Part shown: one piece after another, positions 9,877-41,237 of the stretch | How the letters are laid out: each line of letters begins with the position of its first letter | Numbering within the stretch: the first letter of the stretch is position 1 | From: a virus | DNA length: 64,000 nucleotides | Virus record (IMG/VR): IMGVR_UViG_3300020048_000023 | Span: 32,001 to 96,000 of that record | Strand: one strand, 5' to 3' | Made by a program: the position numbers and the translations under genes | The notes under the pieces: model-generated | What the model saw: only the letters and a program-made list of their open reading frames with translations | Told to the model about the DNA's origin: nothing | Databases searched by the model: none

Positions 9877-10203
9877 TTATTTACCTAATAGTTTATTTGC
9901 TTCTTTTTCCCCAGCTTTAAGCTCGGTTTTTTGTTCGCCGTCCAGTTTAAGAAGCATGGCTTCAAATTCACCAACGTGTGTTTTTTCTTCTTTGGCTACG
10001 TCCAGCATAAGTTTTTTAACTTGTGGGTCTGTGGCTTTGCTTGCCATTTGTTCATATAGGCTAACGGCGTCCAGTTCGGAAATAATAGCCATACGCAGCA
10101 CCTGTTTATTAACATCTTTTCCTGATATGTCGGTGGGAACGGCTGAGGTTATCTCATTGAGCTGCCTAAACCTGTTCAGTTCTTCGAATAAAAGCTTATC
10201 CAT
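9877..10203 (-). CDS. Ferritin-like (encapsulin-cargo Flp / rubrerythrin-like) protein
   Basis: LRMAIISELDAVSLYEQ..DVAKEEKTHVGEF diiron motifs. Confidence 0.85.
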   Translation of the reverse strand: MDKLLFEELNRFRQLNEITSAVPTDISGKDVNKQVLRMAIISELDAVSLYEQMASKATDPQVKKLMLDVAKEEKTHVGEFEAMLLKLDGEQKTELKAGEKEANKLLGK

Positions 10204-10284
10204 AATGCGTTATTTTCTATAAATATTACGTAACATTTGGTAGTGTCGAATATTAGTTATATATTTGCAGCTAAATAAAAAAAT

Positions 10285-10752
10285 ATGAAGACCGCAGTAG
10301 TAAACAGAATTATCAACGAGAAGGGCGAAATGCTCTTTCTGCTCAGGACTACCAGACCATTCGGATGGGGTTTAGTGGGTGGTAAAACAGAACCCGATGA
10401 CAAAGATGCTCTTGCGGCTTGCATTCGTGAAACTGAGGAAGAAACAGGTATTATGCTGCAACGAAGTCAGGTGGTATTAATTGGCGAAGAAAAGTCGATT
10501 AATGGCACCCCTATTACCGTGTTTGAAACCGTACTGGATTATACCCCAAGTGTCAAGCGTGACCCAAGGGAGCACCTTAATTACGTTTGGATTAAAACAC
10601 ATACATATAAATATAAACGGAATTATACCACCGATATTTACAGCCGTTCTTTTGCAGGCAAAACGCTTGATTTCGTTGATCTGGGTCGCGAAGATTTTAT
10701 CCCAGAATTTCTAACCCGTCCGTTCGGTCAAAGACCAACCGAAGACGAATAA
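10285..10752 (+). CDS. NUDIX hydrolase
   Basis: Nudix box GGKTEPDD..ACIRETEEETGI. Confidence 0.9.
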   Translation: MKTAVVNRIINEKGEMLFLLRTTRPFGWGLVGGKTEPDDKDALAACIRETEEETGIMLQRSQVVLIGEEKSINGTPITVFETVLDYTPSVKRDPREHLNYVWIKTHTYKYKRNYTTDIYSRSFAGKTLDFVDLGREDFIPEFLTRPFGQRPTEDE

Positions 10753-10762
10753 TACTAAAAAT

Positions 10763-11137
10763 ATGTCAGAATTACACAAAAAATGGGTTGACGCGCTGGA
10801 CGTAGCGACGTCAAGGCGGTGTTCCAATCATATGGAGTTATCACCGAGAATAGCTAACGCTATGATTGGGGCTTCGGAGTTTCAAAACCGACTACTGAAA
10901 AAGTTGCAAGAAAAAATCGACTTATATCCGCAGTCAGTTTTCGAAGAAAATTCTCCTATTATATCTGCCGACGGCTACAGGGAGATAATAAAAATGGTAC
11001 AAAACTTGGAGCCGCACGTACCAGTTATGGCGCATTCGACTACAATACGTAATGGGTGCCCAAATTGTGGCGGTGATGTTTTTGACGGAACTGGTACTGG
11101 CTGGCGCATATGCCATAAATGCGGATTAATGTTTTAA
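10763..11137 (+). CDS. Hypothetical protein with a C-terminal Zn ribbon
   Basis: CPNCGG..CHKCG. Confidence 0.65.
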   Translation: MSELHKKWVDALDVATSRRCSNHMELSPRIANAMIGASEFQNRLLKKLQEKIDLYPQSVFEENSPIISADGYREIIKMVQNLEPHVPVMAHSTTIRNGCPNCGGDVFDGTGTGWRICHKCGLMF

Positions 11138-11401: not shown

Positions 11402-12820
11402 ATGGCAAATAGATATGTAATGTATAATAGTACACAGAAGGTCGTACTTAAAAAAGATGTTGAATCGGGGAATATACGTTTAGTACATTTGAATGATGTA
11501 GCCAGTCCGTTTGTACTTCCATTCGAAAATTATTTAAGAATGGCTGTGGTTCGTAACACTCAGTTAGATAATTATAACGTTGCTGGGGAGAATCGTTTCA
11601 CCATTGCATCAATAGACACCACTAATAGAAGGATTGTTCTTAATCAAGCCATTCCAGAAGTGGTAAAAACTGGCGTTGCGGTATATGGAAGCGGTTATAA
11701 ATGGGGATTATGCAAAGATTATGCAAATGCAAAACTTGTTGAGTATTTATCTGGTACAACTTTAACATATTCGGCTACTAAAACTGTTGGTACCTTGGCA
11801 GCTGGAAACACAGTAACATTTTTTAACCCGTTTATTAATTATGCATTTACACAACTTACAGGCATTGCGGCTTTAGGGTCAGCTGGTACTTGGAATTCAC
11901 TTGGTATGCAAACAAATGGTATGTGGCGCGGGGTCGACGGTGTTTATAGAATGATTGTTGGCGGAACCAATACAAATGGAAACCCTATTAGATTAGGCTT
12001 GATGACAAGCAACGACTTAAATACGTGGTCATATGCTAATGGGGGTAATTATATGTATACAGGTGGTGAGGGGGTATTTAATATACCTGGGGTTTCTATA
12101 GCTAATTCCGTTGTTTACCCTATGTCTAATCCTATTAAACTTGCAGATAATTCTTACCTTTCATTTTTTACGACGGTTCCATCAACTGGTCTGGCGGCTA
12201 TAGCGCCAGTATATTTTGATGATAACTTCATAGTTACTTCCGTTGGGGCTAATTTAATTATTCCTGATTATCCCATAGACTACGTTACGATATCTGGCGG
12301 TGCCGTTATGCTTAACGGTGTTTGTCATCTTTATTTTTGCGATAGGTTAAACTCTACTCCATCAACGTGGAAGCTTATTGAGGCAATTATTCCAGATTTA
12401 AGTACAATGGAAGTTACCGATTCTAATATAGTTTTATCAAATAATACCGCGGATGTTTGGCATAATCTTCATACAGACGCTATTGTACCGTTTTTATGGA
12501 ATAACACAATATATTTATGGGCATTTGGAACAGGTATAAACACTACTAATAGTATTTACCAAGGGAATAGGGAGTTAGGTCTTATAAAACGTAATCAAGA
12601 CGGTAGTTTTACCATTGACCCAAGATCGCCATTATACTTAAATCCTATTTTAGGAAACTATTTATGGGACTCTGCAATGTCTATTGCAGCTGACCATACA
12701 GGCGGTGGTTGTTCCATGTGGGCTGACGGTCAAGATATGCATATGTTTTCTACTATGAATGCTTCGTCAAACACATATAAGATTTTTCACACAAAAATAT
12801 TATTAAAAGACCAAACATAA
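11402..12820 (+). CDS. Putative virion-associated protein with a beta-propeller / glycosidase-like C-terminus (start re-called)
   Basis: G/T/S/N-rich beta composition; Asp-box-like TSNDLNTW; TATTTAT upstream. Confidence 0.55.
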   Translation: MANRYVMYNSTQKVVLKKDVESGNIRLVHLNDVASPFVLPFENYLRMAVVRNTQLDNYNVAGENRFTIASIDTTNRRIVLNQAIPEVVKTGVAVYGSGYKWGLCKDYANAKLVEYLSGTTLTYSATKTVGTLAAGNTVTFFNPFINYAFTQLTGIAALGSAGTWNSLGMQTNGMWRGVDGVYRMIVGGTNTNGNPIRLGLMTSNDLNTWSYANGGNYMYTGGEGVFNIPGVSIANSVVYPMSNPIKLADNSYLSFFTTVPSTGLAAIAPVYFDDNFIVTSVGANLIIPDYPIDYVTISGGAVMLNGVCHLYFCDRLNSTPSTWKLIEAIIPDLSTMEVTDSNIVLSNNTADVWHNLHTDAIVPFLWNNTIYLWAFGTGINTTNSIYQGNRELGLIKRNQDGSFTIDPRSPLYLNPILGNYLWDSAMSIAADHTGGGCSMWADGQDMHMFSTMNASSNTYKIFHTKILLKDQT

Positions 12821-12879
12821 TAAACTATTACAATAACCAAACTATTTATTGATATAAGAATTCTTAAACTTACAAAAAA

Positions 12880-13152
12880 ATGACAACAGCAAATTTTGCA
12901 CAGGTAGGTATAGCTAACCAACCAGCTCTTGACCCAATCCCAACAGGTACAACAGTGTCGTTCAATAACGACAAATCAAACGTGTACGGTAGCTTAACTA
13001 TTACCAAGCCATCAATGAAAAAGCAAGTTCAGGCTTCAACTTCGGCTGATATATCAAGCGTTGGTGGAGCATTGACCTACACAGAGGTAACACCAGCAAT
13101 GGTTAGAACCGTGTCGGATCGTGTTGACAACCCAGCACAGGTTCAGGTGTAA
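12880..13152 (+). CDS. Small putative structural protein
   Basis: T/S/V/A-rich 90 aa; TATTTAT upstream; terminator downstream. Confidence 0.55.
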   Translation: MTTANFAQVGIANQPALDPIPTGTTVSFNNDKSNVYGSLTITKPSMKKQVQASTSADISSVGGALTYTEVTPAMVRTVSDRVDNPAQVQV

Positions 13153-13241: not shown

Positions 13242-13799
13242 ATGGATACAACAACAAAATACCTGATATATGGGTTACATTGCCCAGTAACAAACAATTT
13301 GCATTATGTAGGTAAGAGTACAAGTTATCTAACCAGACCTATGCAACATATGTCAGCGTCACATTCTGATAAAATACGTGAATGGGTTGGTCAATTAAAA
13401 GAATTTGGGCAAGCGCCCATTATTAGAGTTATTGAGTACGTGGAATACCCAGAGGACTTAGACGAGAGAGAAAAATATTGGATATATAAATCGCTTGAAG
13501 ATGGCTGCTATTTACTGAATAAACAACATAATACAGTTAAAGATTTAATAACAGCTAAGTTAGATGCAAAAACTGCGTATGAAGATAATTCATATAAAAT
13601 AATATCAAATTTCGTAAAAGGTAAACGAAAACAGTTTGGGCTTTCCCAGCCAGAATTAGCCCAAAAATCTGGTGTTGGTCTTAGGTTGCTACGGGAAATA
13701 GAGCAAGGTAAGAAATGTACATTAAGAATGGATAAAGTTAACCAAGTTTTACAAATGTTTGGCGTGGAACTATCAATAAAGGTTAAAGATAGAATATAA
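13242..13799 (+). CDS. GIY-YIG nuclease domain fused to an XRE (HipB/y4mF-like) HTH
   Basis: YLIYGL..HYVGKS..R..QH..E.YWI..LLN; C-terminal KRKQFGLSQPELAQKSGVGLRLLREIEQGK. Confidence 0.85.
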   Translation: MDTTTKYLIYGLHCPVTNNLHYVGKSTSYLTRPMQHMSASHSDKIREWVGQLKEFGQAPIIRVIEYVEYPEDLDEREKYWIYKSLEDGCYLLNKQHNTVKDLITAKLDAKTAYEDNSYKIISNFVKGKRKQFGLSQPELAQKSGVGLRLLREIEQGKKCTLRMDKVNQVLQMFGVELSIKVKDRI

Positions 13800-13800
13800 G

Positions 13801-16800
13801 TTACGTCCTACGAATCTTCCCGTCTTGGCAATTGTATAAATCGTAGGTAATACCCTTCTTACGCAGGGCGTTTCGGACGTCCGTAATATTCTTTTCCTGA
13901 TCATCGTAGAAAGCCACGTAGCGTATGCTCGGGTTTTCTTTTAGTATCTGTAGTATGCGTTCGCCTTTGTTCTGCATCGCATAGGACGCCATATTCAGGG
14001 CGTCAGGGTTTATCCTGTTTAATCTGAGTACCCGTTTAACTTGTCGTTCCAGCGTATCCAGCCTGTTAGTCATAACCACAACCATTGTATCGGATCGGCG
14101 CTGTTCGTCGCGCATTTGGTTGAATACTGGGGCTATAGCTGTAATTTCAAAGACGTTGGTATCTAAGCTTTCAGGCACGCTCCACCAAGCTTTTTCGCTC
14201 GGGAAATCGCCACCTGTTTTTTGTTTGTATTCTTCCCTGCCGAACTCGGGCATAGGGCTATTGATAAGCGTGCTATCCATATCAAACAATACCAATCTCT
14301 TTAGCTGGCTTCTCTGTGCTTCCATAATTGCTTCTTGTAGTTGTTGTTTTGTAAACTTTGTTTTTTTCTCTTCCGCCTGTAGTTTAAACATTTGCTTTAT
14401 CTGGGCAATTTGCTTGGGATAGAAATATTGCTGCAAGGCGTATTCATCATTATTTTTTACAATATATTCGATGAATTGATCAACGCTCCATTGGCGTTTT
14501 TCGAGCTCTGATTTAAGACGATCCATATTCAGATCGTCATTTGGTTGGAATAACTTGTTGATCTTATCGTAATATTTATCACCCTTACGCACCAAATCTT
14601 TGGTATATTTTTGTAAGAAATCCTTACGGCTCATTCTAACCCATTGACCGCCCCATCTATCGTTTAGAAGTAGTGCTTCATTAACCCAAACGGCGCGTAT
14701 CATATTGGGGTTTAAGTTGCCTATGAATAACGCCTGCTTTTCAGCATTTTGGAATAATGTTTGACCAAGTTCTGGTCTTTGGCTTTGTGATATGGCTGGG
14801 TATGGACTTGCCTGATACCTACCCCTGTTTTGTATGCGTTGTGCTTCGCGTTCTTCATCATTTGAAAAACCACTGGTGTAGTCACCCTGTACAAAATAAG
14901 AGCCACCGCCAGCCCATACTGGTGCTTCAAGGTTTGAAACCTTTGTGGCGAATTCTATGATAATACCTGAGCCAGCAAATTCCTTTTTAACTATGTTAAA
15001 ATCAATACTAACGAATAATCCTTTTGGGTTATTAACATTTTCATAACTATAAATTCTACTAACATTTTCCTGACCAGACAGCCCAAACGTTATCGCTAAC
15101 TTGGCGTCAGTTGTGCTATGCCTGCTAAATCCGTGATATACTATCAGAGTTTCATCGTCGTTTATTGGCTCCATTGATTTAACATCGTAGTTTTTGTAGT
15201 TTTCGTGGCGAACTTCTAATATGGTCTTGGTTATATTTTCTACAATATTTTTGGTATAATTCTTTTTAGATTCATTCCAGTATTCGCTATCGTCATATTG
15301 TTCTGGTTTTTCACCGTACAAGAAAAATCGCTTAATAGCTTCGATTATCATATCTGTTGGTGTATCTTCCTCAAATCTAAGGTAAGTTTGTTCATCACCA
15401 TAAACGTCAATTAGGCTTTCACCTCGTTTTTGCTGAAAAAATCTACGTAGTTGGGTAAATTGGTCTTGCGTCGGCATTGAACGCATTTCTATATTACCAG
15501 ATTCTGGTATAACACGAATGAAGCCCATATCGAGAGCGATATATAACCATTTTGAGAACGAGTTCTCATAAGCCTTTCCGTTATATAACCCCCAATCTAT
15601 TGGTAAATTCTCAATAGTACCCATAATATTCCTATGGTCATTTCCACCAGCGCCGCGTATATTAATGCAATACCCACTTGGTGAAATATACCCACATTGG
15701 GTAACATTTGTTTCGCCGTATTCGGCTAATATAGCTTTCTCTACCTTGAGTATGTCGTAGTCCTTGAACTGCTGCTGTGGCGCTTCGTGGAGTTTTTGCT
15801 CGAATATCTCAGTGCGGGTAAAGTTATTAACGTGATCTTCAAACTCAAATGTTTTACGGTTTATTTCGTTTATGATCGCATCAATGTCTGCTTGCTGGTA
15901 GGTAGACGTTTCGGGAACCATTAGTTCCTTATGGTACGAATACTTATCGTTCAGCATATTGAACGCCGTCTGCATAACAAACCGTTCCATATCAGAGCCA
16001 AACGTGTCGGGTATATCAAAGAAAATCTGGTTTTTCAGTGTGAAGTTATACCATTTCTTTTCGTTGAAGTTTCGGTAGCTCATTTTGAACTCAGACATAA
16101 TAGCCACGTTAGTTAGGGTCACCTGCTGGTTATGCCAATATACATCGGCTTTACCAATTCTCTTACTTAGCTGGAAGTGGTCGTAGTTCTCTTCAGGGAA
16201 TTCGTTATACTTAGCCAGCGACGGTACACGCTGTTTAACCTGTTGTACCAGAGCTTCGAAATTACCATCCAGATTACCCTCGGCTTCATTTAACGACTCA
16301 CGGTTTTTGTAAACTGGGTCAGGAATCCTTTGGTGTATAAATTCGATACTTGGATTCTTTTGTCTGGCTAATGTTAAACCGTTTTTTATTTTAGCAAGCA
16401 TTTCACGCCTACCGTTAATATCAGTATCAAAATTATTGGGGTATAATTCACCTAACTTAAATGCGTCAGTATTGCCAGCCCTTTGAACTGGAATCAACAC
16501 ATCGGGGCTTTTATATATTAGACCGTAATCTGTTGGAAAACGCATATTCAATTTATTGTTCACCCATTGAATTATTTCATTATGAAAATATCCAGTGCCA
16601 TTTATAACATATAAATCACCAGTCTTAGCATCAATAAAACCCCTAATATTTTGTATTAAATTTCTGATTGACTTTGGGTTTTTAAATGCTTCTATAGTTT
16701 CAATATCGTCGCCGTTATTGATATAATTAACTACACCCAAAAAATCTTCACGCAATATTTTAGCCGTAAGCTCTTGTATTTTCTGTGGAGTATTAGTTAT

Positions 16801-19800
16801 TTGGTTAGGGTACCTGTTAGCCATTTTTAATTTAACCTCGCCGTCGTCATCGCGGAATTGATCAAAATATTCGATCTGTTGCTTGGCTTCCGACAGCTTC
16901 CCGTCGATCAAGTTAAAAATTAGTTGCAACGCCACCTTTTGCGCTTCTGTTACCACTGGCTGTATTTCATAGGCGTGGCGCAGGGCTTTTAAATTATCAG
17001 CATTCAATATTTTGAGCGTGCTGTACTTGTCGTCGTAATGCAGTCTATTTTCGTTTCCGAAGGCATTAATAAATGATTCGATTTTATTAATCTTTTCGAA
17101 TATATAATTTCCATCCAAAAATTGGTTATGGTATTTACCCAATTCCCGCAATATGTCGCCAGCGTTTTCAAACCTATATCTCCACTGATTACCACCAGCT
17201 CCATTCCAAGATGTATGTATTATTTTTTCGGCGTGTCTGTCTTGAAATTCGTATACGTCTGGTATATTATTGCTATTTTCTTTGAGTATTTTAACCGCAA
17301 TCTCGCGTATTTTCTGCGGGGTTGACTTGTACTTATCGAAGTTTTGCTGTATGTAGCCCATAACGGCATCACGGGTGTTTTCAAGTTTATCACCGTAGAT
17401 AAGATTCAATAAATCGGTGTTTAGCTGACCGTGCTGACCACCAGTAATACCCATAGCGTCAATTTCGCCCCCTGTAACGGCTAAATCAGCCGCTTTGCGG
17501 GGGTATTTTTCTTCTGGATGCATTGATGCGTCTTTTAGCTTATCTTGCACCACAAAGCTTCCTACGGCTTTTGGATCGATTTTATTGACTGCGTTCATTA
17601 GCCATCTTTCCTCAGCTGGCGTATTGATCTCTTTTCGGGTCAATTCAAAGGCTGTAATAATCTTTGACAGGTTGCCCCAGTTGCCGAAACGTTGAACATA
17701 AAAACTTGACGGCGATTCCTTGGAATCCTTTGTAAGTAGGAAGATAAACTCAGCAAGCGTTTTAACCTTAGGGAACTGTTCGTATGTACCCCTAAAATCG
17801 TCGCCGAAAATAGCTCTATATAGCCCAGATGAAACCAACAATTCGGCTGATTGCTTAATGTCGGTTTTGTGAACTATTTTATCAAATTCAATAACGAAAC
17901 GCTCGTCTTTGATATGTTTAATGTCTTCAGCATTTTGCCTGATCATATTCCACGTATTCGGCTCAATGGTAAACCCGAACCGTGCGGCGAACTGTACGGC
18001 ACGCAGCATCCTGAGCGGGTCTTCCGCAAAGGCTTTTGGGCTGACCATTCGTATGATCTTGTTTTTAAGGTCTTCCCGACCGTTAAACGGGTCGTATATC
18101 TGACCGTGTATATCCTTGGCAATAGCGTTGATCGTGAAGTCGCGGCGTTCCAAGTCTTGATTAAGTGTTATACTCGGGTTGGCTGTAACTTCAAATCCGC
18201 CGTACCCCTGACCTACCTTCTTTTCGGTGCGGGCTAATGCTACGTCAATATCTTCTTTATCGCCGAACGGTTTGAACTTGATTACGGCAAAGCTACCGCC
18301 GACAAATCCAGTATCATTCTTTTCGTTCTTGGCTATATTACCAAATTTCGATAATATGTTAATGACAACCTGCGCATCCAAGCCAGCTACCATAATATCC
18401 AAGTCCTTGGAAACTGTGTTTAGGAAGGTATCGCGCACGGCTCCGCCAACCTGATATACCCTACCGCCAGCTTTTTCTATTTCGGTTACGAAAGGTAATT
18501 TTGCTATGTCGGTATGTTCTATCTCTCTAAGGTTTTCATCGCCAGCCCTGTCAGTCCAGCTGTCGTATGTTGCCTGAGCGCTCCCCACGTTGTATGGGAA
18601 GGTACTTACAATTTCTTTAAGTGCTAATTTTTTCACGATATCTTCTGTTACTGAATTTCCGTTGGCAAAGATAAACCATTTTGGTTTATCATACGGAAAT
18701 CTAAAATGATAACTTCCACGGTTTGGTATATCAATGAAAAATTGCGGTGCTGGGTATTTCGCCATAAATGGGTAGTATATTCTAAGTAGAATATTTTTGA
18801 TTCGTTCCTTGTCATTACCTTCAAGACTTAGGTGAGGCCCGCCGCTCAAAAATGCATAACTAAGCCTTATATATCCGTCATTAAATGCGCGTTTATATAG
18901 TTCAGCCAGATACCCATTTGTATCTTTTTCCATTCTTTTTACGTCTATTTTGTAAAGTGGGTCAAACAGGTCAAAGTGCGACCCCACTTTTATAAACTTA
19001 TTATCTGGGGTAATCCAGCAGAAATGCCGTGTTGTTAAATCAGGACTATATTTGTACTCTAATTCTTCTTTAAGTATATTTTCATTTACTTGTTGAACCT
19101 TATTTAAAAAATTATCGAGTGCTTCGACGTATTTGCTCGATAATTGATCACGAAATTTATTTAACAGTGCGCTCACATATATTTTTTGGTGTTCTGGCGT
19201 TAAGTTATGTAAACCGTCAACGGATAAAAATAACCTTAATTTAGGGAACTTTAACATATTCATATAATATGTAAATTTTTCTGGCTCTGTTAATGTGCTG
19301 AATAAAATGCGTGGCACGTTTGTAGAATTATTTAAAAAATATGGCTTTAATGACTGCTGTAATGATGGTGATAAACTATCGTATAGTAAATCTATTAATC
19401 TTTGACTATCAATCCTAAATTTGTTATCCAGTTCTATGATAATAGATGGTTTTTCTTTATCCGAAAACATACTAAATATTTGTAGATAGAAATTATTTTG
19501 TTCAGATAAAGCGCCTCTATCAAAAAATTGTTCATTCTGTTTATCAAAAAAGTCCATAATCTTATATAAGACATTTTTTCTATTTTCAAACGGCACAGCA
19601 TTCCACCTACGCGCTAATAACCTTTGTTCTTGGTCATAAGTATTAGAACGGGTGTCCTGATTTATTATTAATTTTTCTAATATTTTTTCTTTATCTTGGT
19701 CGTTCAGCAAACTAAATAATTTATCATTTTCTAAATGTTTGCGCTCAAACCCCATAAAAAATATTATTTCGTTAGAACTCAGAAATTCCAGTTCATTTGG

Positions 19801-21366
19801 GTTTATTCTAACACCCCAAGCTTCGTGGTTCATTATCTGGTCGGCTTTGATACGAGCCATATGTGCAAAGTATTTTATAAGCTTATCATTGCCGCGTATA
19901 GTATTAAATTTAGCATCAGATAACCCGAGCCCGAGTCCTATATACTTATTTTTTAGATCGTCTGGCAAAACACTAAACTTATAATCAGATATACCGTTAT
20001 TTTGGGTATTTGGGTATATTTCTAAAAATGCTTTTTTTTCTTCGTATGATAATGCGGCGAATTCTGAATCAGGTATATCTTTTTTAAACCGTTCATAATT
20101 ATTCTTTTCGGTGTCAGTTAATGGAACGGCTTTGAATAATTCCTGTAACCCATTAAGTTTAGGTTCAAGCTTAACTATATCATCCCATTTCATTTCTTTA
20201 TCACCGTCGTTATTGGCTGAGGTAACAACGTATCCATTGTATTGAGCCTGTACAACGAATATATGGTATTTATCTTGAAAGGTTCCACCTTTCCATTTTG
20301 CCAACTCAGCATTTGTTCTCTCAATGTTTTTAACAAAGTAGAACGCAGGCTCGTTTCCAGCGTACCTGTAGCTATTGTACATATTAGACGCGTCATTTCT
20401 GGCTATACACCAACCATACGGTATTTTACCCTTATATTGGATGCAAGCTTTCGCACTATCCGCGTAGAAAACTTCGATGCCATTTTGGTTATATATTAAT
20501 TTACCTGAAATTTCGGCGTTTTCTTCTGGATCGGTATCTATGTTAGTAGCAGTAGACCTTTGACCCCTAACATAATCTACTACCTGTTCTAACTCCCTAA
20601 AATCCTTATAAGCGTCTATGTTATTACGTTGGTTAACTGGTACAGATATATGAACATTCTGTGAGTATAATTCTCTCAGGTTTTTATTTTTTATTTCTTT
20701 AAAATAAGTCACATACTGATTTACAATATTTTGATCGAAACCCTGTTTTATGTAGTTAGCTTGTTGACTTTTAAAATCTTCTTCCAGCAACTTCTTTGTT
20801 AATGATTTAACAATAGACTCACTCATAGACCCACTATATTTTACGTGACCTGTTGACGGGTATAGGGCTGATGTTGTGTAGTCGCCACCGTCCAGCTGGT
20901 CATTCCATCGGTCGCCCATAGGAATAACGGTATCCGAGGTTAAATCAATCTCGCCAAGCACTTCACCAGCATCGCCGTTGCCCATAATGGTTCCGTGCAT
21001 AGTGAAACTCTTTATTTTCTTCCAGTTAGTGATTAAATTTGAGTTCTTTGGCGAGCCGCCTTGTGGGGTTGCCAATGTGACGTGAGCCAGTTTACCTTCA
21101 AGCGGGTATCCTTCTACCTTAACGGCAATAGCTTGGTTTGATAAACCGATATGTGTTGCTACTAAAGCTACTTGCTTGCGTGATCGTGCCAGTTCCCCAT
21201 ATGGTTCAGGAAAATCTTCGGAGTACATCGGGTCGTAGGAAAATTTGATGGTCATATGATCACCATACCAAACCCAATCCTTTGGTACAAAGCTCCTTAG
21301 CTTACCGAGAGCACCTTTGGAATTTTGGTCTAAAAATATGGCAATGTAGTTGGATAGGAAGCTCAT
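13801..21366 (-). CDS. 2521-aa multidomain protein: 2H phosphoesterase, CCA-adding/poly(A) polymerase, ART-like and HAD RNA-repair phosphatase domains plus unknown domains
   Basis: HMTI..HVTL (N-terminus); VGGAVRD..DLDI..DLERRDFTINA..EDPLRMLRAVQFAARF; VYHGF..GLFVS..IIEF; LVLFDMDSTL..MTNR..K..FYDD (C-terminus). Confidence 0.9.
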   Translation of the reverse strand: MSFLSNYIAIFLDQNSKGALGKLRSFVPKDWVWYGDHMTIKFSYDPMYSEDFPEPYGELARSRKQVALVATHIGLSNQAIAVKVEGYPLEGKLAHVTLATPQGGSPKNSNLITNWKKIKSFTMHGTIMGNGDAGEVLGEIDLTSDTVIPMGDRWNDQLDGGDYTTSALYPSTGHVKYSGSMSESIVKSLTKKLLEEDFKSQQANYIKQGFDQNIVNQYVTYFKEIKNKNLRELYSQNVHISVPVNQRNNIDAYKDFRELEQVVDYVRGQRSTATNIDTDPEENAEISGKLIYNQNGIEVFYADSAKACIQYKGKIPYGWCIARNDASNMYNSYRYAGNEPAFYFVKNIERTNAELAKWKGGTFQDKYHIFVVQAQYNGYVVTSANNDGDKEMKWDDIVKLEPKLNGLQELFKAVPLTDTEKNNYERFKKDIPDSEFAALSYEEKKAFLEIYPNTQNNGISDYKFSVLPDDLKNKYIGLGLGLSDAKFNTIRGNDKLIKYFAHMARIKADQIMNHEAWGVRINPNELEFLSSNEIIFFMGFERKHLENDKLFSLLNDQDKEKILEKLIINQDTRSNTYDQEQRLLARRWNAVPFENRKNVLYKIMDFFDKQNEQFFDRGALSEQNNFYLQIFSMFSDKEKPSIIIELDNKFRIDSQRLIDLLYDSLSPSLQQSLKPYFLNNSTNVPRILFSTLTEPEKFTYYMNMLKFPKLRLFLSVDGLHNLTPEHQKIYVSALLNKFRDQLSSKYVEALDNFLNKVQQVNENILKEELEYKYSPDLTTRHFCWITPDNKFIKVGSHFDLFDPLYKIDVKRMEKDTNGYLAELYKRAFNDGYIRLSYAFLSGGPHLSLEGNDKERIKNILLRIYYPFMAKYPAPQFFIDIPNRGSYHFRFPYDKPKWFIFANGNSVTEDIVKKLALKEIVSTFPYNVGSAQATYDSWTDRAGDENLREIEHTDIAKLPFVTEIEKAGGRVYQVGGAVRDTFLNTVSKDLDIMVAGLDAQVVINILSKFGNIAKNEKNDTGFVGGSFAVIKFKPFGDKEDIDVALARTEKKVGQGYGGFEVTANPSITLNQDLERRDFTINAIAKDIHGQIYDPFNGREDLKNKIIRMVSPKAFAEDPLRMLRAVQFAARFGFTIEPNTWNMIRQNAEDIKHIKDERFVIEFDKIVHKTDIKQSAELLVSSGLYRAIFGDDFRGTYEQFPKVKTLAEFIFLLTKDSKESPSSFYVQRFGNWGNLSKIITAFELTRKEINTPAEERWLMNAVNKIDPKAVGSFVVQDKLKDASMHPEEKYPRKAADLAVTGGEIDAMGITGGQHGQLNTDLLNLIYGDKLENTRDAVMGYIQQNFDKYKSTPQKIREIAVKILKENSNNIPDVYEFQDRHAEKIIHTSWNGAGGNQWRYRFENAGDILRELGKYHNQFLDGNYIFEKINKIESFINAFGNENRLHYDDKYSTLKILNADNLKALRHAYEIQPVVTEAQKVALQLIFNLIDGKLSEAKQQIEYFDQFRDDDGEVKLKMANRYPNQITNTPQKIQELTAKILREDFLGVVNYINNGDDIETIEAFKNPKSIRNLIQNIRGFIDAKTGDLYVINGTGYFHNEIIQWVNNKLNMRFPTDYGLIYKSPDVLIPVQRAGNTDAFKLGELYPNNFDTDINGRREMLAKIKNGLTLARQKNPSIEFIHQRIPDPVYKNRESLNEAEGNLDGNFEALVQQVKQRVPSLAKYNEFPEENYDHFQLSKRIGKADVYWHNQQVTLTNVAIMSEFKMSYRNFNEKKWYNFTLKNQIFFDIPDTFGSDMERFVMQTAFNMLNDKYSYHKELMVPETSTYQQADIDAIINEINRKTFEFEDHVNNFTRTEIFEQKLHEAPQQQFKDYDILKVEKAILAEYGETNVTQCGYISPSGYCINIRGAGGNDHRNIMGTIENLPIDWGLYNGKAYENSFSKWLYIALDMGFIRVIPESGNIEMRSMPTQDQFTQLRRFFQQKRGESLIDVYGDEQTYLRFEEDTPTDMIIEAIKRFFLYGEKPEQYDDSEYWNESKKNYTKNIVENITKTILEVRHENYKNYDVKSMEPINDDETLIVYHGFSRHSTTDAKLAITFGLSGQENVSRIYSYENVNNPKGLFVSIDFNIVKKEFAGSGIIIEFATKVSNLEAPVWAGGGSYFVQGDYTSGFSNDEEREAQRIQNRGRYQASPYPAISQSQRPELGQTLFQNAEKQALFIGNLNPNMIRAVWVNEALLLNDRWGGQWVRMSRKDFLQKYTKDLVRKGDKYYDKINKLFQPNDDLNMDRLKSELEKRQWSVDQFIEYIVKNNDEYALQQYFYPKQIAQIKQMFKLQAEEKKTKFTKQQLQEAIMEAQRSQLKRLVLFDMDSTLINSPMPEFGREEYKQKTGGDFPSEKAWWSVPESLDTNVFEITAIAPVFNQMRDEQRRSDTMVVVMTNRLDTLERQVKRVLRLNRINPDALNMASYAMQNKGERILQILKENPSIRYVAFYDDQEKNITDVRNALRKKGITYDLYNCQDGKIRRT

Positions 21367-21447
21367 AAACGATTTTTTTATAAATAGTTTGCAAAGGTCG
21401 AAAAAGAGTTGTACATTTGCAAACGGATTTCTTAATATTTATTGTAA

Positions 21448-22154: not shown

Positions 22155-22207
22155 TAATTGTTTGGTTTTTTCGAAAACATTGCATATATTTGCAGAAAAA
22201 TTATACG

Positions 22208-23281
22208 ATGAAATACCAAGACCTCGACCCTAAAAACATTCTCTTCCTGTCAAAATCAGGGAGCCACGCCTATGGGCTGAATACGCCGACTTCAGATGTC
22301 GATCTACGCGGTATTTTCATTGCACCTAAAAACGTGTTCTATGGGCTCAATTTGCCAGATCAGGCTTCCGACGACACCAACGACACCACTCTGTATGAAC
22401 TAAGGCGTTTTATCGACCTATTGTCCAAGCAGAACCCTAATATCGTGGAGTTGCTGGGTGTGCCAGAAGATTGTATCCAGTTTAAGCACCCGTTGTTCGA
22501 CAAAATCTTGGCTCATAAAGACAAGTTTATTACGCGTAACATTCGTAATACATTTGGTGGATATGCTATTGCCCAGATCGGGAAGTCCCGCGGATTGAAC
22601 AAAAAGATTGTTAAGCCGATGGATTTAGCTAAAAAGACCCCTATGGACTTCTGCTACGTTCCAAACCAGAAAGGTGAAACCTACAGCCTTACCGAATGGC
22701 TTGACCGCCGCAACCTGAAAGCCAAATATTGTGGCTTGGCGGCACTCTCACATATTAAGGATGGTTACGGCTTGTTCTATGACTGGTGTTCGCTCGATAG
22801 CGGTACTTCGGTTCTACGCGGTGTCTGCTTCGACGATTCAAACGAAGTTCATTTGAGCTCAATCCCGAAGGATTTTGTGATGATGACTACGATGTTCTAC
22901 AATAAGGACGCGTATTCAACGTATTGCCGAGAGTACAAGGAGTACTGGGAATGGGTTGAAAAGCGTAACCCGCACCGATATGACAAGAATATGGAAGTCG
23001 GCAAAGGGTACGACACCAAAAATATGATGCACTGTATCCGACTTCTCAGAATGGCGGAAGAAATGCTTCGTACTGGTGAGCTTAATGTAAGGCGCCCAGA
23101 CAGGGAATACCTGCTCGATATCCGTAATGGAAAATTCGAACACGCCGAACTATTGGAATACGCCGAAAACAAGATCAAATTGCTGGACGAACTCGTACCA
23201 GTATCACCACTTCCTACAGACGTGGATATCGATTTGCTTAATAATCTATTAATTGAAATACGCGATGAATTCTACGCCTGA
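22208..23281 (+). CDS. Pol-beta-superfamily nucleotidyltransferase (YcgL-like)
   Basis: SGSHAYGLNTPTSDVDLRGIF; NPNIVELL; YDTKNMMHCIRLL. Confidence 0.9.
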   Translation: MKYQDLDPKNILFLSKSGSHAYGLNTPTSDVDLRGIFIAPKNVFYGLNLPDQASDDTNDTTLYELRRFIDLLSKQNPNIVELLGVPEDCIQFKHPLFDKILAHKDKFITRNIRNTFGGYAIAQIGKSRGLNKKIVKPMDLAKKTPMDFCYVPNQKGETYSLTEWLDRRNLKAKYCGLAALSHIKDGYGLFYDWCSLDSGTSVLRGVCFDDSNEVHLSSIPKDFVMMTTMFYNKDAYSTYCREYKEYWEWVEKRNPHRYDKNMEVGKGYDTKNMMHCIRLLRMAEEMLRTGELNVRRPDREYLLDIRNGKFEHAELLEYAENKIKLLDELVPVSPLPTDVDIDLLNNLLIEIRDEFYA

Positions 23282-24648: not shown

Positions 24649-25380
24649 TTATTCGTATTGATACCCAGCGAATTTTTTATTTAAACTCAGAACCCGCCAC
24701 CTAATAGTAACCATAGGTATGTTTAATATTGTGGAAGCATAACTGGCTGATCGGTATTTTACACCGTCAATTATTATTGGTTTATTTTGTTCACCAAAGT
24801 ACTTTCCGATGCGTTGAGCGGCTATTTTATCTTTAGCCTCTTTTGTATGTGTTTTTTCGTAGAAGGGGTTTTTTTCCTTATTACGATCTCTACATTCACG
24901 GCAGGTCTTATTTATTGGTGCTATTTCTTTACCACATTTACAATATTTAACTGAGCTTCCGTTTCTCCAATTTGGGTTTAATTCTTGAGGACGCGAAAAT
25001 TTAAACTTTTTTTCTTCAGCGGTCATAGAGTCAAATGTTAATTTAACCGTAGTTCGAATACGTTCAATTATATCAATTTTATCTGGATTTTTACTTAAAT
25101 TATCCCCGCCGCTGGCTTTCAACCCTATATTATATGCTGGGTTCTTATCTAAATAATGCTGTTCAGTTTGCAGTAATAAGTCGAACGTGCATTCTTCAAC
25201 CAATTCAAATGTGAAGTTTTCGTTACCATATTTATCCCAAGCCCGTTGTAGGTGGGAGTTATGGTGTTTATTATTTTGCAATTCATTGCGGTGTCGAATT
25301 AATCTTTTATCAACATCTTTAGACGAGCCGTAATATGCGTCGCCGTTAGCTGTATTAACTATTCTATATACGCCTATCAT
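24649..25380 (-). CDS. GIY-YIG homing endonuclease with a NUMOD3-type DNA-binding region
   Basis: GVYRIVN..YYGSS..R..H..HHNSHLQRAWDKYG; NPFYEKTHTKEAK; start re-called. Confidence 0.9.
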   Translation of the reverse strand: MIGVYRIVNTANGDAYYGSSKDVDKRLIRHRNELQNNKHHNSHLQRAWDKYGNENFTFELVEECTFDLLLQTEQHYLDKNPAYNIGLKASGGDNLSKNPDKIDIIERIRTTVKLTFDSMTAEEKKFKFSRPQELNPNWRNGSSVKYCKCGKEIAPINKTCRECRDRNKEKNPFYEKTHTKEAKDKIAAQRIGKYFGEQNKPIIIDGVKYRSASYASTILNIPMVTIRWRVLSLNKKFAGYQYE

Positions 25381-25492
25381 AGGTCTACCTTTTAATATAA
25401 ATATCAACACAAATAGAAAAAATTCAATATCGCATTTGTTTTTCTAATAATTATTGCATATATTTAAGCCATAAATTATTAAACACACAAAA

Positions 25493-27474: not shown

Positions 27475-27695
27475 TCAAACTACCAGACCCGCATATTGCC
27501 GCGATAAAAGTTGTCGCTGTTATAGAGAGTTGCACTACAATGACTCAATTTGAGGCAGCCCGAGAAATGTATCGACGATACAACATATTATTCAGAGGCT
27601 CTTGGGATTGGATTTATAATGATGAATTTCACGAAGCATTAAACGAAAAATACTTATATCTTAAACAAAATGTTGACGTACAAGGGAAAATATAA
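27471..27695 (+). CDS. Hypothetical protein
   Basis: ATGA overlap. Confidence 0.55.
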   Translation: MIKLPDPHIAAIKVVAVIESCTTMTQFEAAREMYRRYNILFRGSWDWIYNDEFHEALNEKYLYLKQNVDVQGKI

Positions 27696-28890
27696 CGAAG
27701 CCGTAGTGTATACGGATAACATCGAAGAAACCGCTGCATCGCAGTTAATCGAATTGTGTAGCCAAGAATTTATGTCTGGCTCCAAAGTTCGTGTTATGCC
27801 TGACGTGCACGCTGGTAAAGGCTGTGTTGTCGGTACTACATTGACCATCGGTGAAAAGATTGTCCCGAACTTAGTCGGCGTGGATATAGGGTGTGGTATG
27901 CATACAGTTAAGCTGGATGTACGTGCTCACGAAATTGACTTGGCTAAACTGGATAAGAATATCAAGAAGTTCGTACCGTTGGGAACCAGCGTGCGTAACG
28001 TGCCGTTCTTAAAGTACTACAACCAGATCAAGGACGAAATGGAATCTATGGCTTCGGCTGCCAATGTGGACTTAGTGCGAGCTAAGTTGAGTATGGGTAG
28101 CTTGGGTGGTGGTAACCACTTCATTGAGCTGGACGTTGACGACGACGGGTACGTGTACCTTGTTATCCATACTGGTAGCCGTAAGGCTGGTACCCAAGTA
28201 TGTGAATTTCACCAAGATTTGGCTTACAAGCTGTTAAAGCAGCGAGGTAAGGAAAAGAGCCAGCTTGTTGATTCGTTGAACTCACAGGGTCGTCAGAAGG
28301 AAATTCAGGCTGAGTTGAAGAAACTTGCGCCAGTTACGAATATCCCAAAAGCTCTGGCTTACTTGGAAGGTGATCAACTGAAGGCTTACCTGAATGATAT
28401 GGGCGTAATGCAGAAGTATGCCGACTTGAACCGTAAGGCTATCGCTGAAACGATTATAGTTGGTATGCGTTGGAAGGCGGTGGCATCGTTCACTACAATC
28501 CATAACTACATTGACTTGGATACTATGATTCTGCGTAAGGGTGCTATCTCAGCTCAGAGCGGTGAACTGGTACTTATCCCAATGAACAATGAAGACGGAT
28601 CGTTGATTTGTACAGGTAAGGGTAACCCAGATTGGAACTTCTCGGCGCCTCACGGTGCTGGTCGTTTAATGAGCCGTTCAAAGGCTAAGGCTTCCTTATC
28701 CTTAGAATTGTACCAGCAGGGGTTGAAGGATGCTGGCGTATACAGTACGACTGCCAACCAATCAACCTTAGACGAATCGAAGCAGGCTTACAAGCCAATC
28801 GACGAAATCATGGCTAACATTGGCGATACCGTAAATATCGTCAAGCGTATCAAACCTATTTTTAACATCAAGGCTGGGGACGAAGATTAA
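27670..28890 (+). CDS. rtcB: RtcB family 3'-phosphate RNA ligase
   Basis: MPDVHAGKG, VGVDIGCG, GSLGGGNHFIE, IHTGSR, HNYI, RKGA, SAPHGAGR. Confidence 0.96.
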   Translation: MLTYKGKYNEAVVYTDNIEETAASQLIELCSQEFMSGSKVRVMPDVHAGKGCVVGTTLTIGEKIVPNLVGVDIGCGMHTVKLDVRAHEIDLAKLDKNIKKFVPLGTSVRNVPFLKYYNQIKDEMESMASAANVDLVRAKLSMGSLGGGNHFIELDVDDDGYVYLVIHTGSRKAGTQVCEFHQDLAYKLLKQRGKEKSQLVDSLNSQGRQKEIQAELKKLAPVTNIPKALAYLEGDQLKAYLNDMGVMQKYADLNRKAIAETIIVGMRWKAVASFTTIHNYIDLDTMILRKGAISAQSGELVLIPMNNEDGSLICTGKGNPDWNFSAPHGAGRLMSRSKAKASLSLELYQQGLKDAGVYSTTANQSTLDESKQAYKPIDEIMANIGDTVNIVKRIKPIFNIKAGDED

Positions 28891-35429: not shown

Positions 35430-35990
35430 ATGATTGACGATGTTAGAAAAATGATTGATAGGGTAAAGCTTATTAATGAGAATATTGACGCTAATGGTAA
35501 CTCGGCGGTCAATTTTGTGTACCAACAGCACCCTGAATTGGCTAAGATAGGTACACAAGAACAGTATTCTCGGTATCTTGGCACTATATTTCCAAGTAGT
35601 AAAATAAAGGATATTGTTTACCATAGTAGCCCTGAAAAAATTGAAAAATTCAGGGAAAATATGTTCGGTACGTATTTTGCATATTCACCTATACAAGGTA
35701 CTTATGGAAATGTTGTTAATTGCGTACTTTTGAATGTTACAAATCCGTTAATCATACCAAAATCAGAAGATAGCTCAGAAACAAAAGAACTCTATAATAA
35801 AGAATACAGGGCTTATAACAACCCGTCTTCTTTCTCCCCAGAAGGAATTAGATCATATAAGTACGATGCAAGTATTGAACGATCTACTGTAACCAAAGAA
35901 GGGATTCAAATTACAGTTAGAAGCCCAGAGCAGATTTACATACTGGGTTCGCAACAAGATATAGCTGGATTTACCAATTTTGTAAGGTAA
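35430..35990 (+). CDS. Putative ADP-ribosyltransferase-fold (ART-PolyVal-like) protein with a helical leader
   Basis: IVYHSS..F..GTYFA..YG..LNVTNPL..YDA.I..V.SPEQI; TATTTAT upstream. Confidence 0.55.
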   Translation: MIDDVRKMIDRVKLINENIDANGNSAVNFVYQQHPELAKIGTQEQYSRYLGTIFPSSKIKDIVYHSSPEKIEKFRENMFGTYFAYSPIQGTYGNVVNCVLLNVTNPLIIPKSEDSSETKELYNKEYRAYNNPSSFSPEGIRSYKYDASIERSTVTKEGIQITVRSPEQIYILGSQQDIAGFTNFVR

Positions 35991-38924: not shown

Positions 38925-38951
38925 TAAGTAATACAAAACAATACGAATGAA
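38194..38951 (+). repeat. 32-bp exact direct repeat (38194-38225 and 38920-38951) flanking two genes
   Basis: AATAATAAGTAATACAAAACAATACGAATGAA at both positions. Confidence 0.9.
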
Positions 38952-40374
38952 AGCAGTTGACCTTGTAACAATCGAGCGGTTTATCCCTATCTTCAAGGAA
39001 GGGGTACCTGCTAACGCCATTGAAGTAGCCCGAGTTAAGGGCTCCGATGGTGAGTCCATACAGTACGATATTGTCGTAGGTAAGGGACTACATCAAATTG
39101 GGGGTCAGGGTATTTATATCCAGCCCGACTACACTATTCCATTGAACGAACTGTTCTTGGAGTACCACGCACCGTTCGGCGAGCCTAAAAATAGCCGCTT
39201 GGGTAAGAAGGGTCGTGTCCGTGCCATAAAGTTTAACCTGAGCTTTGAGAACTCCACTGAGCCTATCTATAGCAATGGTATTCTGGTGCCGTGGAGCAAC
39301 TTTCTTGACTGGTTTTCCGCAGAATTGGATAAAGAAGGTAGTGCTATTAGAGATATAGAATTTCCTATGAATGATGCTATGTATACCCATCCAAGTACTG
39401 ACGTTGATGTAATGCGTACTAATTTTTTATACGACATTAATTTTAACCACCCTGAGTTTCCTTGGATGGAATTAATAGGTGTGGAGAAATACGTTGCCGA
39501 CGACAATCTGGAAGGTAGCCAGCCGAAGGGTATGACCGAACGTGAGTTTCCGTCGTTCCTGTACAAGACTGACGAGGAAACCATTCAGAACCACCGCAGG
39601 GCAGTTGACCGATGCTACGCCGACGAAGAGGTACTGGCTTTCACACAGAAGCGTGACGGTTCCAGTATTACAGAGTACTGTCGTATTAATCCTATTGCCG
39701 ACGAGTCACTATTGACAGAATACGAATTTGGCATCTGCTCCCGTAAATGGGAAAAGAAACTTGACCAGCAATACGTTGCTGGATACAAGGATGGGGAAGT
39801 TGTTCTGCACAAATATTTTCACCCAGAGCTTAAAATCAGGGGTTGGATGAACGACCAGAGCCGCGACTTCTATACCGAAGCCGAAGCAGCTGAAAAGTTC
39901 GAGCCAGTTATGGAAATTCAGAAGGACGCTTGGATTGATACCGATAAGAAATTCGGGTACCTTGCTAAACTTATAGAATTCTGTAAAAAGTATGAACGGC
40001 AACTGTGTATGCGCGGCGAGCTTATAGGCGCTGGCAACAAGGGTAGCGGTAATAAGCTTAATTCTGACGCACGAACCGAATCCCACGTGGTATGGTTCGG
40101 GGTTGACGATCTGAGCCAAGGCTTCTCTCGACGCATTCATTATGGTCAGGAACACAATCTTGAAACCATATGCGAAGAGCTTGGCTTCGAATATACCAAG
40201 GAGTTATTTAGCGGGGTATTCAGCTATGACGAGATAATCGCCAAGGCTCACGAATACTTTAAAAAGGTGAAGGACGAAACTGGTATTATAGTTGAAGGCG
40301 TGGTTATACGTACCAAGTACAGCAATAACCTATCCGTCAAATATATCAACCCAGAATATGATGCCAAATCCTAA
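38947..40374 (+). CDS. ATP-dependent RNA ligase (DRB0094/Rnl2-like)
   Basis: N-terminal I..ANAIEVA; KTDEE.IQN; motif I TQKRDGSSIT; RGELIG; EGVVIR; KYINPEY. Confidence 0.9.
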   Translation: MKAVDLVTIERFIPIFKEGVPANAIEVARVKGSDGESIQYDIVVGKGLHQIGGQGIYIQPDYTIPLNELFLEYHAPFGEPKNSRLGKKGRVRAIKFNLSFENSTEPIYSNGILVPWSNFLDWFSAELDKEGSAIRDIEFPMNDAMYTHPSTDVDVMRTNFLYDINFNHPEFPWMELIGVEKYVADDNLEGSQPKGMTEREFPSFLYKTDEETIQNHRRAVDRCYADEEVLAFTQKRDGSSITEYCRINPIADESLLTEYEFGICSRKWEKKLDQQYVAGYKDGEVVLHKYFHPELKIRGWMNDQSRDFYTEAEAAEKFEPVMEIQKDAWIDTDKKFGYLAKLIEFCKKYERQLCMRGELIGAGNKGSGNKLNSDARTESHVVWFGVDDLSQGFSRRIHYGQEHNLETICEELGFEYTKELFSGVFSYDEIIAKAHEYFKKVKDETGIIVEGVVIRTKYSNNLSVKYINPEYDAKS

Positions 40375-40891: not shown

Positions 40892-41236
40892 ATGCCAAAG
40901 TATAGCAGATACGTATCAGACGGCGCCAGTTTATACGGCGTTATGGATATGCCTAAACTTTTATCAATACGCAAGGTAGACTTGATGGAAATTTACGTTA
41001 ATACCAAGTATAGTTACTCATTTGAGTGCGCTATAAAAGCCGCTCTTGAAATGGGTATACTTGAACAAGAAGACCCTAACGAGGAATACAGCTACCCGTT
41101 TGATGAAATCAGGGCTACGCTGGAAGACTTCGTTAAATCAGGTATATTCACCGACGATGATTTGGCTTTCCTTGAAGAAAGGGTACTTGACAAATTGGGC
41201 GCAGACCCAGATAAAATTAACGAAAACCCTATTTAG
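40892..41236 (+). CDS. Hypothetical acidic protein
   Basis: 114-aa ORF abutting thg1. Confidence 0.6.
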   Translation: MPKYSRYVSDGASLYGVMDMPKLLSIRKVDLMEIYVNTKYSYSFECAIKAALEMGILEQEDPNEEYSYPFDEIRATLEDFVKSGIFTDDDLAFLEERVLDKLGADPDKINENPI

Positions 41237-41237
41237 T

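Follow-up and report, generated by a model that had tools for sequence, protein, structure and literature searches.

The gene described here (P0001) lies at positions 13801..21366, on the minus strand, of a 64,000-nucleotide stretch of viral DNA (the window), which is part of a linear virus record of 160,910 bp that is estimated to be 67% complete (G000; IMG/VR record IMGVR_UViG_3300020048_000023, of which the window covers positions 32,001 to 96,000). It starts with ATG, has no internal stop over its 2521 codons and encodes a chain of 2521 amino acids (aa) and 290 kDa, in which ten modules (M1 to M10) were distinguished; unless another strand is given, the window coordinates below refer to the minus strand. 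Seven large homologues (P0002-P0008; 1445-2540 aa), some full-length and some mosaic, were found in public metagenomes, and the gene is therefore real and no accident of assembly; a nucleotide search of the GenBank phages with the gene gave no match. The initial annotation had described its product as an RNA-repair polyprotein that might be packaged and injected. Our analysis gives about an even chance to the reading that the virus, a T4-like jumbo phage, makes here a polyvalent multi-enzyme with a tRNA 3'-end repair triad at its centre and that the protein is packaged and diced.

The first enzyme of the chain is a CNPase-like 2H phosphoesterase, the core of module M1 (20974..21366; aa 1-131). 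In the AlphaFold2 (AF2) model of aa 1-918, residues 4-131 formed a confident 2H core (predicted local distance difference test, pLDDT, 92-97) that carries two HxT motifs, H37-M-T and H95-V-T. Comparison by VIA placed this core nearest to the catalytic domain of CNPase (2xmi; Z 11.6, root-mean-square deviation 3.9 over 130 residues, 21% identity), followed by plant CPDase, LigT, phage Acb1 and coronavirus ns2, all with Z of 7.8 or less, and Foldseek matched it to 2H enzymes at a probability of 1.00. M1 gave no family in Pfam (E ≤ 10), PHROGs (E ≤ 0.1) or NCBIfam (E ≤ 0.01), and phmmer against the PDB sequences returned no meaningful match; its membership of the 2H superfamily, which the initial annotation had proposed, rests on the predicted fold and the motifs, and both support it. 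The core is followed by an acidic disordered tether (20824..20973, aa 132-181, or to about residue 183 in the AF2 model, with a pLDDT of 32-38 over residues 131-180).

Module M4 (17278..18612; aa 919-1363), composed of head, neck and body, is a class II CCA-adding enzyme: Pfam identified the head (PF01743, aa 971-1106, 4e-20, 72.9 bits against a cut-off of 23) and the neck (PF12627, aa 1131-1187, 44.7 bits against a cut-off of 22), phrog_2244 matched at 4.5e-68, and the four catalytic motifs GGAVRD (974), DLD (988), RRD (1074) and EDPLR (1115) were intact. Models of CCA-adding enzymes scored 171 bits on M4, against 104 for PcnB, all of them under the equivalog cut-offs; the best NCBIfam model, likewise far below its equivalog cut-off, was the nucleotidyltransferase (NTase) half of the E. 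coli-type multifunctional CCA addition/repair protein, and no HD domain or HD half of that repair protein was detected in M4 with NCBIfam. At the other end of the chain, M10 (13804..14319; aa 2350-2521) is a HAD phosphatase of the Pnkp or 'Swiss Army Knife' kind, for which DUF2608 scored 31.5 bits (cut-off 22.6) and the HAD motifs DMDST (at 2362), T2433 and DD (at 2488) were found, in agreement with the earlier assignment; HAD_SAK_1 (22.5 bits) and HAD-IIIC remained below their cut-offs, and the phosphatase part of the polynucleotide kinase family phrog_415 matched at 1.7e-5.

Relatives of the virus, located through a 746-aa protein at 57-64% identity, include five complete genomes of 327-365 kb, and the CCA-adding enzyme, the 2H domain and the HAD phosphatase occur together in all five, either as three genes or fused in other orders, for example as a 1296-aa CCA-2H-HAD protein or as a 529-aa CCA-2H protein adjoining a separate HAD gene. 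The three were clustered likewise in L007 and L008. The repeated linkage of these enzymes in changing order argues for a single pathway, and CNPase leaves a 2'-phosphate. We hold with high confidence that the enzyme set serves RNA-end repair, and the evidence supports its fit to the healing and rebuilding of tRNA 3' ends; in its design, the CCA-2H-HAD triad corresponds, without homology, to the NTase and HD arrangement of bacterial Cca. As a separate observation, the CCA-adding enzyme of the related contig L008 (8276-14663) is split, with its head ending a 1258-aa protein and its body starting another of 518 aa, which has a 2H domain at its end; between the two halves lies a 353-aa open reading frame (ORF; 12049-13110), possibly a mobile insertion.

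The fourth recognisable domain is M9 (14320..15213; aa 2052-2349), which consists of an ADP-ribosyltransferase (ART)-fold domain with a VYHG motif and a helical tail, and which the initial annotation had called an ART-like YHG domain. An AF2 model built from an alignment of 45 family members reached a pLDDT of 90 and bears this out: among the best 50 PDB chains listed by VIA-align almost all were of the ART fold (Z 7.1 to 3.3, residues 3-202), including TreX (7.1), Scabin (5.9), DarT1 (5.8), pertussis S1 (5.7) and Tpt1 (5.2), and H27 of the VYHG motif, Y55/Y57 and E87 were nearly invariant among the 45 members. The Foldseek matches of M9 were all weak (E 0.01 or above), none of the Pfam ART models, ART-PolyVal (PF18760) included, matched M9 or its 44 relatives, phmmer against the PDB sequences found nothing meaningful, and tblastn of M9 against GenBank phages gave no match. 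More than 260 homologues were found at E ≤ 1e-10, a length near 300 aa being common among the closest. From the modelled fold, then, M9 is placed in the ADP-ribosyltransferase fold superfamily. Tpt1 enzymes remove terminal 2'- or 3'-phosphates using NAD+, and M9 could work on phosphates in this manner or could equally modify host proteins as Alt does.

The modules are joined by short helical linkers ending in (L/I)xE, and T4- and phiKZ-type prohead proteases cut head proteins after Glu in hydrophobic-x-E motifs. All nine linkers listed in the initial annotation are present, one at each junction: linker a (SESIVKSLTKKLLEE; 20779..20823, aa 182-196) after the tether, linker b (VNENILKEE; 19063-19089) at the end of M2, linker c (TEDIVKKLALKE; 18613-18648) at the end of M3, linker d (TPQKIREIAVKILKE; 17278-17322) at the end of M4, linker e (TPQKIQELTAKILRE; 16747-16791) at the end of M5, then SLNEAE (16279-16296), KLHEA (15781-15795), NITKTILE (15214-15237) and LQEAIME (14320-14340) at the ends of M6, M7, M8 and M9, respectively. 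Of 35 [LI]xE sites in the whole protein, 9-10 lie at the nine junctions. These positions coincide with the places where the homologues gain, lose or swap modules: the proteins have modules in common at 89-97% identity, differ in module content and break at the linkers. P0003, for instance, is a mosaic that matches aa 1-199 (92% identity), 755-1380 (89%), 1686-1857 (92%) and 2330-2521 (97%), with other material between. Among the ends of the BLAST segments against the homologues, 30 of 51 fell within 10 aa of a linker (10.8% expected by chance), a comparison for which a p-value is indicative only, since related sequences share ends. The linkers are, in short, true module borders.

A hidden Markov model (HMM) built from the four best linkers recovered 24 linker copies in the family as a whole; the seven homologues account for 19, and 21 of the 24 keep the final hydrophobic-x-E. 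In some homologues the tether and linker a are duplicated (P0002 aa 315-372 compared with P0001 aa 137-194, and also in P0005), as if a tether-leader unit travelled with each inserted cassette. The linker DNA was also considered as a substrate for recombination; linkers d and e have only a core of about 13 nt in common, which is too little to argue for homologous exchange.

The origin of the linkers is indicated by free-standing homologues of M2, M8 and M9, which start with leaders of 9-22 aa that likewise end in (L/I)xE. The free-standing M2 proteins start with MKLSHIFKDLLNE, the counterpart of linker a, directly followed by DFKSQ, and the corresponding join in the polyprotein reads ...SLTKKLLEE/DFKSQ (the slash marks the end of the leader or linker); the free-standing M9 proteins start MKLNELLLE/VEV, MRLSEIITE/VKV, MKVIITESQLKRLLE/TRV or MDINKIIKEILNE/VRY, where the polyprotein has NITKTILE/VRH, and free-standing M8 proteins start, for example, MKIIITEQQFRYILNE/FEY. 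An [LI]xE ending at positions 7-24 was found in 115 of 120 free-standing M2 proteins and 33 of 44 free-standing M9 proteins, compared with 42 of the 229 ORFs of this genome and 12-20% of internal windows of the M2 and M9 proteins. The presence of one kind of leader on three unrelated families argues that the linkers are leaders kept after fusion, and we consider it very likely that the linkers of the polyprotein derive from the N-terminal leaders of once separate proteins. In format the leaders resemble the capsid-targeting sequence (CTS) of T4, MKTYQEFIAE; this sequence directs internal proteins into the prohead, after which gp21 removes it with a single cut (PMC8442874). Its residues 4 and 7 serve targeting and residues 8 and 10 processing, an Asp in the last position prevents the cut, and varied proteins of T4 relatives carry CTS-like leaders (PMC9026906). 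When the linker HMM was run on this genome, no leader of the TPQKI type was detected on any other protein.

Upstream of the gene lies a late-promoter-like box, AAACTATTTATAAAAAAA (21373..21390), with a TATTTATA core at 21379-21386 that ends 12 nt before the ATG; no Shine-Dalgarno sequence was found upstream of the gene. The core occurs 37 times on both strands of the 160.9-kb record. In two complete relatives PHROGs identified the head cluster (portal phrog_213, protease phrog_207 and major head protein phrog_138), and there (G/C)TATTTATA precedes the portal gene, the S77 protease gene (for example, AACTATTTATATAAAAG) and several unnamed neighbour genes. A box was also present at most 45 nt upstream of 13 of 61 free-standing M9 genes, compared with 1.3% of random windows. 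The 'late motif' of the initial annotation is therefore, by comparison, a promoter of the head-gene type. Nearly all neighbours of the polyprotein gene are on the other strand, and so are the early cassettes with host-type promoters. From promoter type and context, late expression of the gene appears quite probable.

The S77 protease of the relatives is of the T4 prohead type (Peptidase_S77) and was found in all five complete genomes, as well as in 12 of 20 large contigs with homologues of M9 or of the CCA-adding enzyme; in the relative L117, for instance, it lies at 10213-10914. A search for related loci with the single polyprotein as query gave no match, and an alignment used as query did match.

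With the domains and their borders, the kinship of leaders and linkers, the motif in common with head genes and the protease of the relatives as its observed footing, we infer a course that runs from late expression through loading, cutting and ejection to the substrates acted upon. The gene would be transcribed from the late, head-gene type promoter of the lineage, and the chain, made late in infection, would be taken up into the prohead core by binding of its internal leaders. The prohead protease, an S77 enzyme of the T4 type, would then cut it after the Glu residues of the linkers into separate enzymes, which would be ejected with the DNA, so that repair activity would be present before any phage gene is expressed. 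In the infected cell, the 2H domain would open 2',3'-cyclic phosphate ends, the HAD phosphatase would take off the remaining phosphate, the ART-fold module might assist in a Tpt1-like, NAD-dependent manner, and the CCA-adding enzyme would rebuild the tail and mature the 28 tRNAs of the phage itself. Around this core, the accessory modules M2, M3 and M5-M9 are exchanged as cassettes among related phages. Given linkers of leader format, their (L/I)xE endings and a head-type promoter, loading, cutting and ejection make the most likely course for the chain, and the analysis as a whole puts its packaging and cleavage at, or slightly short of, an even chance. A wider proposal, tentative and with chances somewhat below even, is that the leaders form a plug-and-play loading code of T4-like jumbo phages, whereby any protein with a 9-22-aa (L/I)xE leader is loaded, polyproteins are diced, and the tRNA-tail kit is injected to pre-empt host enzymes that cut or modify the 3' ends of tRNAs, Cas12a3 being one example.

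Several observations weigh against packaging and cleavage. Within the protein, 25 further [LI]xE sites fall inside modules, and among the linker copies in homologues the final Glu is lost in 3 of 24. The helix of linker a (aa 183-207) is continuous with the first helix of M2 in the AF2 model, and linker a could therefore belong to the M2 fold. The N-terminus of the polyprotein itself (MSFLSNYIAIFLD...) forms the opening strand of the 2H domain and carries no leader, nor do the free-standing 2H and HAD genes and most free-standing CCA genes of the relatives, and the function of the T4 CTS is known at the N-terminus only (PMC9026906). Boxes of the same type stand upstream of RtcB and of homing endonucleases in this phage, and the box is therefore no marker of cargo. 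As for the surroundings, the neighbours of the gene are nucleotide-metabolism and RNA-repair genes, with no virion genes among them, and neither head genes nor an S77 or S78 protease was found in the 160.9-kb, 67%-complete fragment.

The best surviving alternative, to which we assign a substantial minority chance, is that the protein is made late and stays uncleaved in the cytoplasm as a 'Swiss army knife', with 3'-end healing and CCA addition on a single scaffold for maturing the 28 phage tRNAs and mending damaged ones, its linkers being relics of fusion, flexible or helical connectors and joints of exchange. Besides the leaderless N-terminus and leaderless genes of the relatives, the continuous helix of linker a and the promoter type of RtcB, it has the tRNA genes themselves in its favour: the record contains 28, in several arrays, and 27 of them encode no CCA, which already explains a cytoplasmic CCA-adding enzyme. 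(The initial annotation had stated that none of the phage tRNA genes encodes CCA; this stands for 27, and the 28th, the flagged tRNA-Thr(cgt) gene, ends in ...ctcca and is ambiguous.) The region also encodes further RNA-repair and NAD-related enzymes on the plus strand of the window, namely an NTase (phrog_388; 22190-23281), RtcB (27670-28890), an RNA ligase of the ATP-grasp type (phrog_968; 38947-40374), a Thg1-like tRNA-His guanylyltransferase (41046-42056) and NAMPT (50537-52057), of which RtcB, the ligase and the Thg1-like enzyme speak for this alternative, and among the relatives the state of fusion and the order of domains vary freely. A purely cytoplasmic protein, however, leaves unexplained why leaders of one format, with a motif of the S77 type, stand on the unrelated M2, M8 and M9 families, why Glu persists in so large a majority of the linker copies, why [LI]xE is concentrated at the junctions, and why the homologues have domains in common with polyvalent proteins, for which a role as virion cargo is predicted.

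That the chain is instead a general anti-defence effector, in which the 2H domain degrades cyclic-oligonucleotide or 2'-5' immune signals as Acb1 does, the ART-fold domain modifies host proteins in the way of Alt, the HAD phosphatase clears the nucleotide products and the CCA-adding enzyme is one of many passengers, appears unlikely. The 2H fold does match Acb1 (Z 7.6) and viral 2',5'-phosphodiesterases, the 2H domains of polyvalent proteins have been argued to act on nucleotide signals or as RNases (PMC5512222), and the closest solved structures of M9 are protein- and DNA-modifying toxins. CNPase, which acts on 2',3'-cyclic ends, is nonetheless the best match of M1 by a clear margin, M10 matches the Pnkp phosphatase family, and the 2H domain is linked with the CCA-adding enzyme and the HAD phosphatase in every complete relative. 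Packaging of the whole chain and its ejection uncut, with the leaders as mere handles for binding to the core, has a precedent in polyvalent proteins of the N4 virion RNA polymerase type, which are packaged unprocessed (PMC5512222), and would accommodate the homologue linker copies without Glu, but it is very unlikely, as most copies retain Glu at P1 and Leu/Ile at P3 and the CTS of T4 is cut after loading (PMC8442874).

Judged by its domains, the polyprotein can be classed with the 'polyvalent proteins' described by Iyer et al. 2017, because its homologues carry ART-PolyVal, GNAT and P-loop kinase domains (ART-PolyVal as a separate module in P0002 and P0003) and because M5 recurs in proteins of 2-5 kaa together with LPD23, a putative metallopeptidase or ART-PolyVal. 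For polyvalent proteins, packaging and delivery together with the DNA have been predicted, and possibly processing by built-in peptidases (PMC5512222). Like them, this is a very large, shuffled phage protein, with ten modules and mosaic homologues, a 2H domain, M5 in the company of LPD23 and a predicted delivery. Unlike them, it would be processed by the prohead protease at leader-derived linkers and not by a peptidase of its own, no MuF, portal or zincin peptidase domain having been found in the polyprotein, and its gene does not lie beside virion or packaging genes in the 160.9-kb fragment. The paper on polyvalent proteins makes no mention of CCA-adding enzymes and argues against a repair function of the 2H domains it describes (PMC5512222), and in a 2021 survey of jumbo phages CCA-adding enzymes, 2H domains and Thg1 appear as individual repair genes (PMC7824862); in neither paper did we find a chain with the tRNA-tail repair triad, internalised CTS-like leaders or processing by a prohead protease.

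The internal proteins IPI-III and Alt of T4 offer the closest parallel for the leaders. In both systems short amphipathic N-terminal leaders, which often start with MK and end in (L/I)xE, stand on unrelated proteins, one family of which has the ART fold, and the lineage has an S77 protease, a promoter of the head-gene type and a predicted role for the cargo in conflict with the host. Here, by contrast, the leaders are internal and join ten modules, the protein's own N-terminus lacks one, the would-be cargo consists of RNA-repair enzymes, and the system is known from sequence alone; the ART domain of Alt is, moreover, of the R-S-E kind, whereas M9 appears to be of the H-Y-E kind. Like E. coli Cca (NTase and HD), the polyprotein would combine CCA addition with the chemistry of a 2',3'-cyclic phosphodiesterase and of a phosphatase in a single polypeptide, although HD is replaced by 2H and HAD domains at the far ends of the chain. 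End healing of the Pnkp kind is similar in its HAD phosphatase and in the company of RtcB, RNA ligase and a Thg1-like enzyme in the same phage; it differs in that the polyprotein has no kinase or ligase (P0006 has an AAA_33 kinase) and would be aimed at the 3' tail, not at nicks in the anticodon loop.

The setting in which such a protein would matter is given by Cas12a3 of a Bacteroidetes bacterium, which cleaves the 3' CCA tails of tRNAs as a defence against phages and for which viral counter-measures are stated to be unknown (PMC12851939). If the proposal is correct, a repair kit that is injected, or made late, would be a direct candidate counter to immune systems that cut or block tRNA 3' tails, such as Cas12a3. 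RNA repair would then join the injected classes formed by Alt-type modifiers, anti-restriction proteins and virion RNA polymerases, capsid targeting of the T4 kind would be seen to scale from small internal proteins to polyproteins built of cassettes, and the virion cargo of uncultured jumbo phages could be predicted by a rule readable from sequence. Even if the protein is not packaged, a conserved CCA-2H-HAD triad that non-homologously replaces the NTase and HD design stands, and M2 and M9, large unnamed phage families, gain a context. New in the present work are the kinship of leaders and linkers, the box in common with head genes, the conserved triad cluster and the link of the homologues and M5 to polyvalent proteins.

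The remaining modules, like M9, gave no usable family in Pfam, PHROGs or NCBIfam. M2 (19063..20778; aa 197-768) belongs to a widespread phage family of at least 200 members; most of these are free-standing phage proteins with a length near 770 or 483 aa, and hardly any has a Pfam family. Within the AF2 model of 918 residues it shows a beta-rich core and, in its C-terminal half, a HEAT-like solenoid; fold searches returned generic HEAT or solenoid matches and weak viral matches only, and the ESM Atlas returned unnamed viral clusters only. M5 (16747..17277; aa 1364-1540) is followed by M6 (16279..16746; aa 1541-1696) and M7 (15781..16278; aa 1697-1862), the last of which is 90-92% identical in P0003 and P0004. 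The initial annotation had noted two or three related (W/Y)I(T/S)P...G(Y/F)IR modules, and two are indeed present, the small alpha/beta module M3 (WITP...GYIR; 18613..19062, aa 769-918) and M8 (YISP...GFIR; 15214..15780, aa 1863-2051). Their relation is weak, with a BLASTP E of 0.4 that is not significant and an hhalign E of only 0.014, which was nevertheless the best of 10 module pairs; the reading of M3 and M8 as clear repeats is weakened accordingly, and on these sequence comparisons they are possibly related.

The gene stands among genes for a GIY-YIG/HTH protein, the NTase, a homing endonuclease and thymidylate synthase. Genes of the GIY-YIG/HTH homing-endonuclease-like kind flank the region (window 13242-13799, plus strand, and 24649-25410, minus strand), and one of them abuts the 3' end of the giant gene. 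Promoters of the TAnnTTTG / TTTG type were found in about 20-35 upstream regions, and Shine-Dalgarno sequences were absent, features for which the host is probably a bacterium of the Bacteroidota.

Other proteins with comparable starts were also observed. In L022 (2281-3888), a 535-aa protein begins with the leader MNIVEIIKKEIYSLIKE followed by NIDNIPED..., similar to the way M5 begins in the polyprotein (KILKE/NSNNIPD), and has an M9 ART-fold domain at its end; the layout suggests a smaller fusion in which the leader occupies the true N-terminus. Three other genes with a TATTTATA box in this virus, at window 9877-10203 (minus strand), window 35430-35990 (plus strand) and genome 22052-22618 (plus strand), have leader-like starts (MDKLLFEELNRFRQLNE, MIDDVRKMIDRVKLINE and MVMSILTEMRRLRSIMGLSEE, respectively) and are possible further candidates for cargo. 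Between the portal and prohead protease genes of L117 (11032-16119, plus strand) and L118 (3342-8360, minus strand) lies a late-motif gene for a protein of 1672-1695 aa that carries an endolysin domain at its C-terminus and may be a virion lysin that is ejected.

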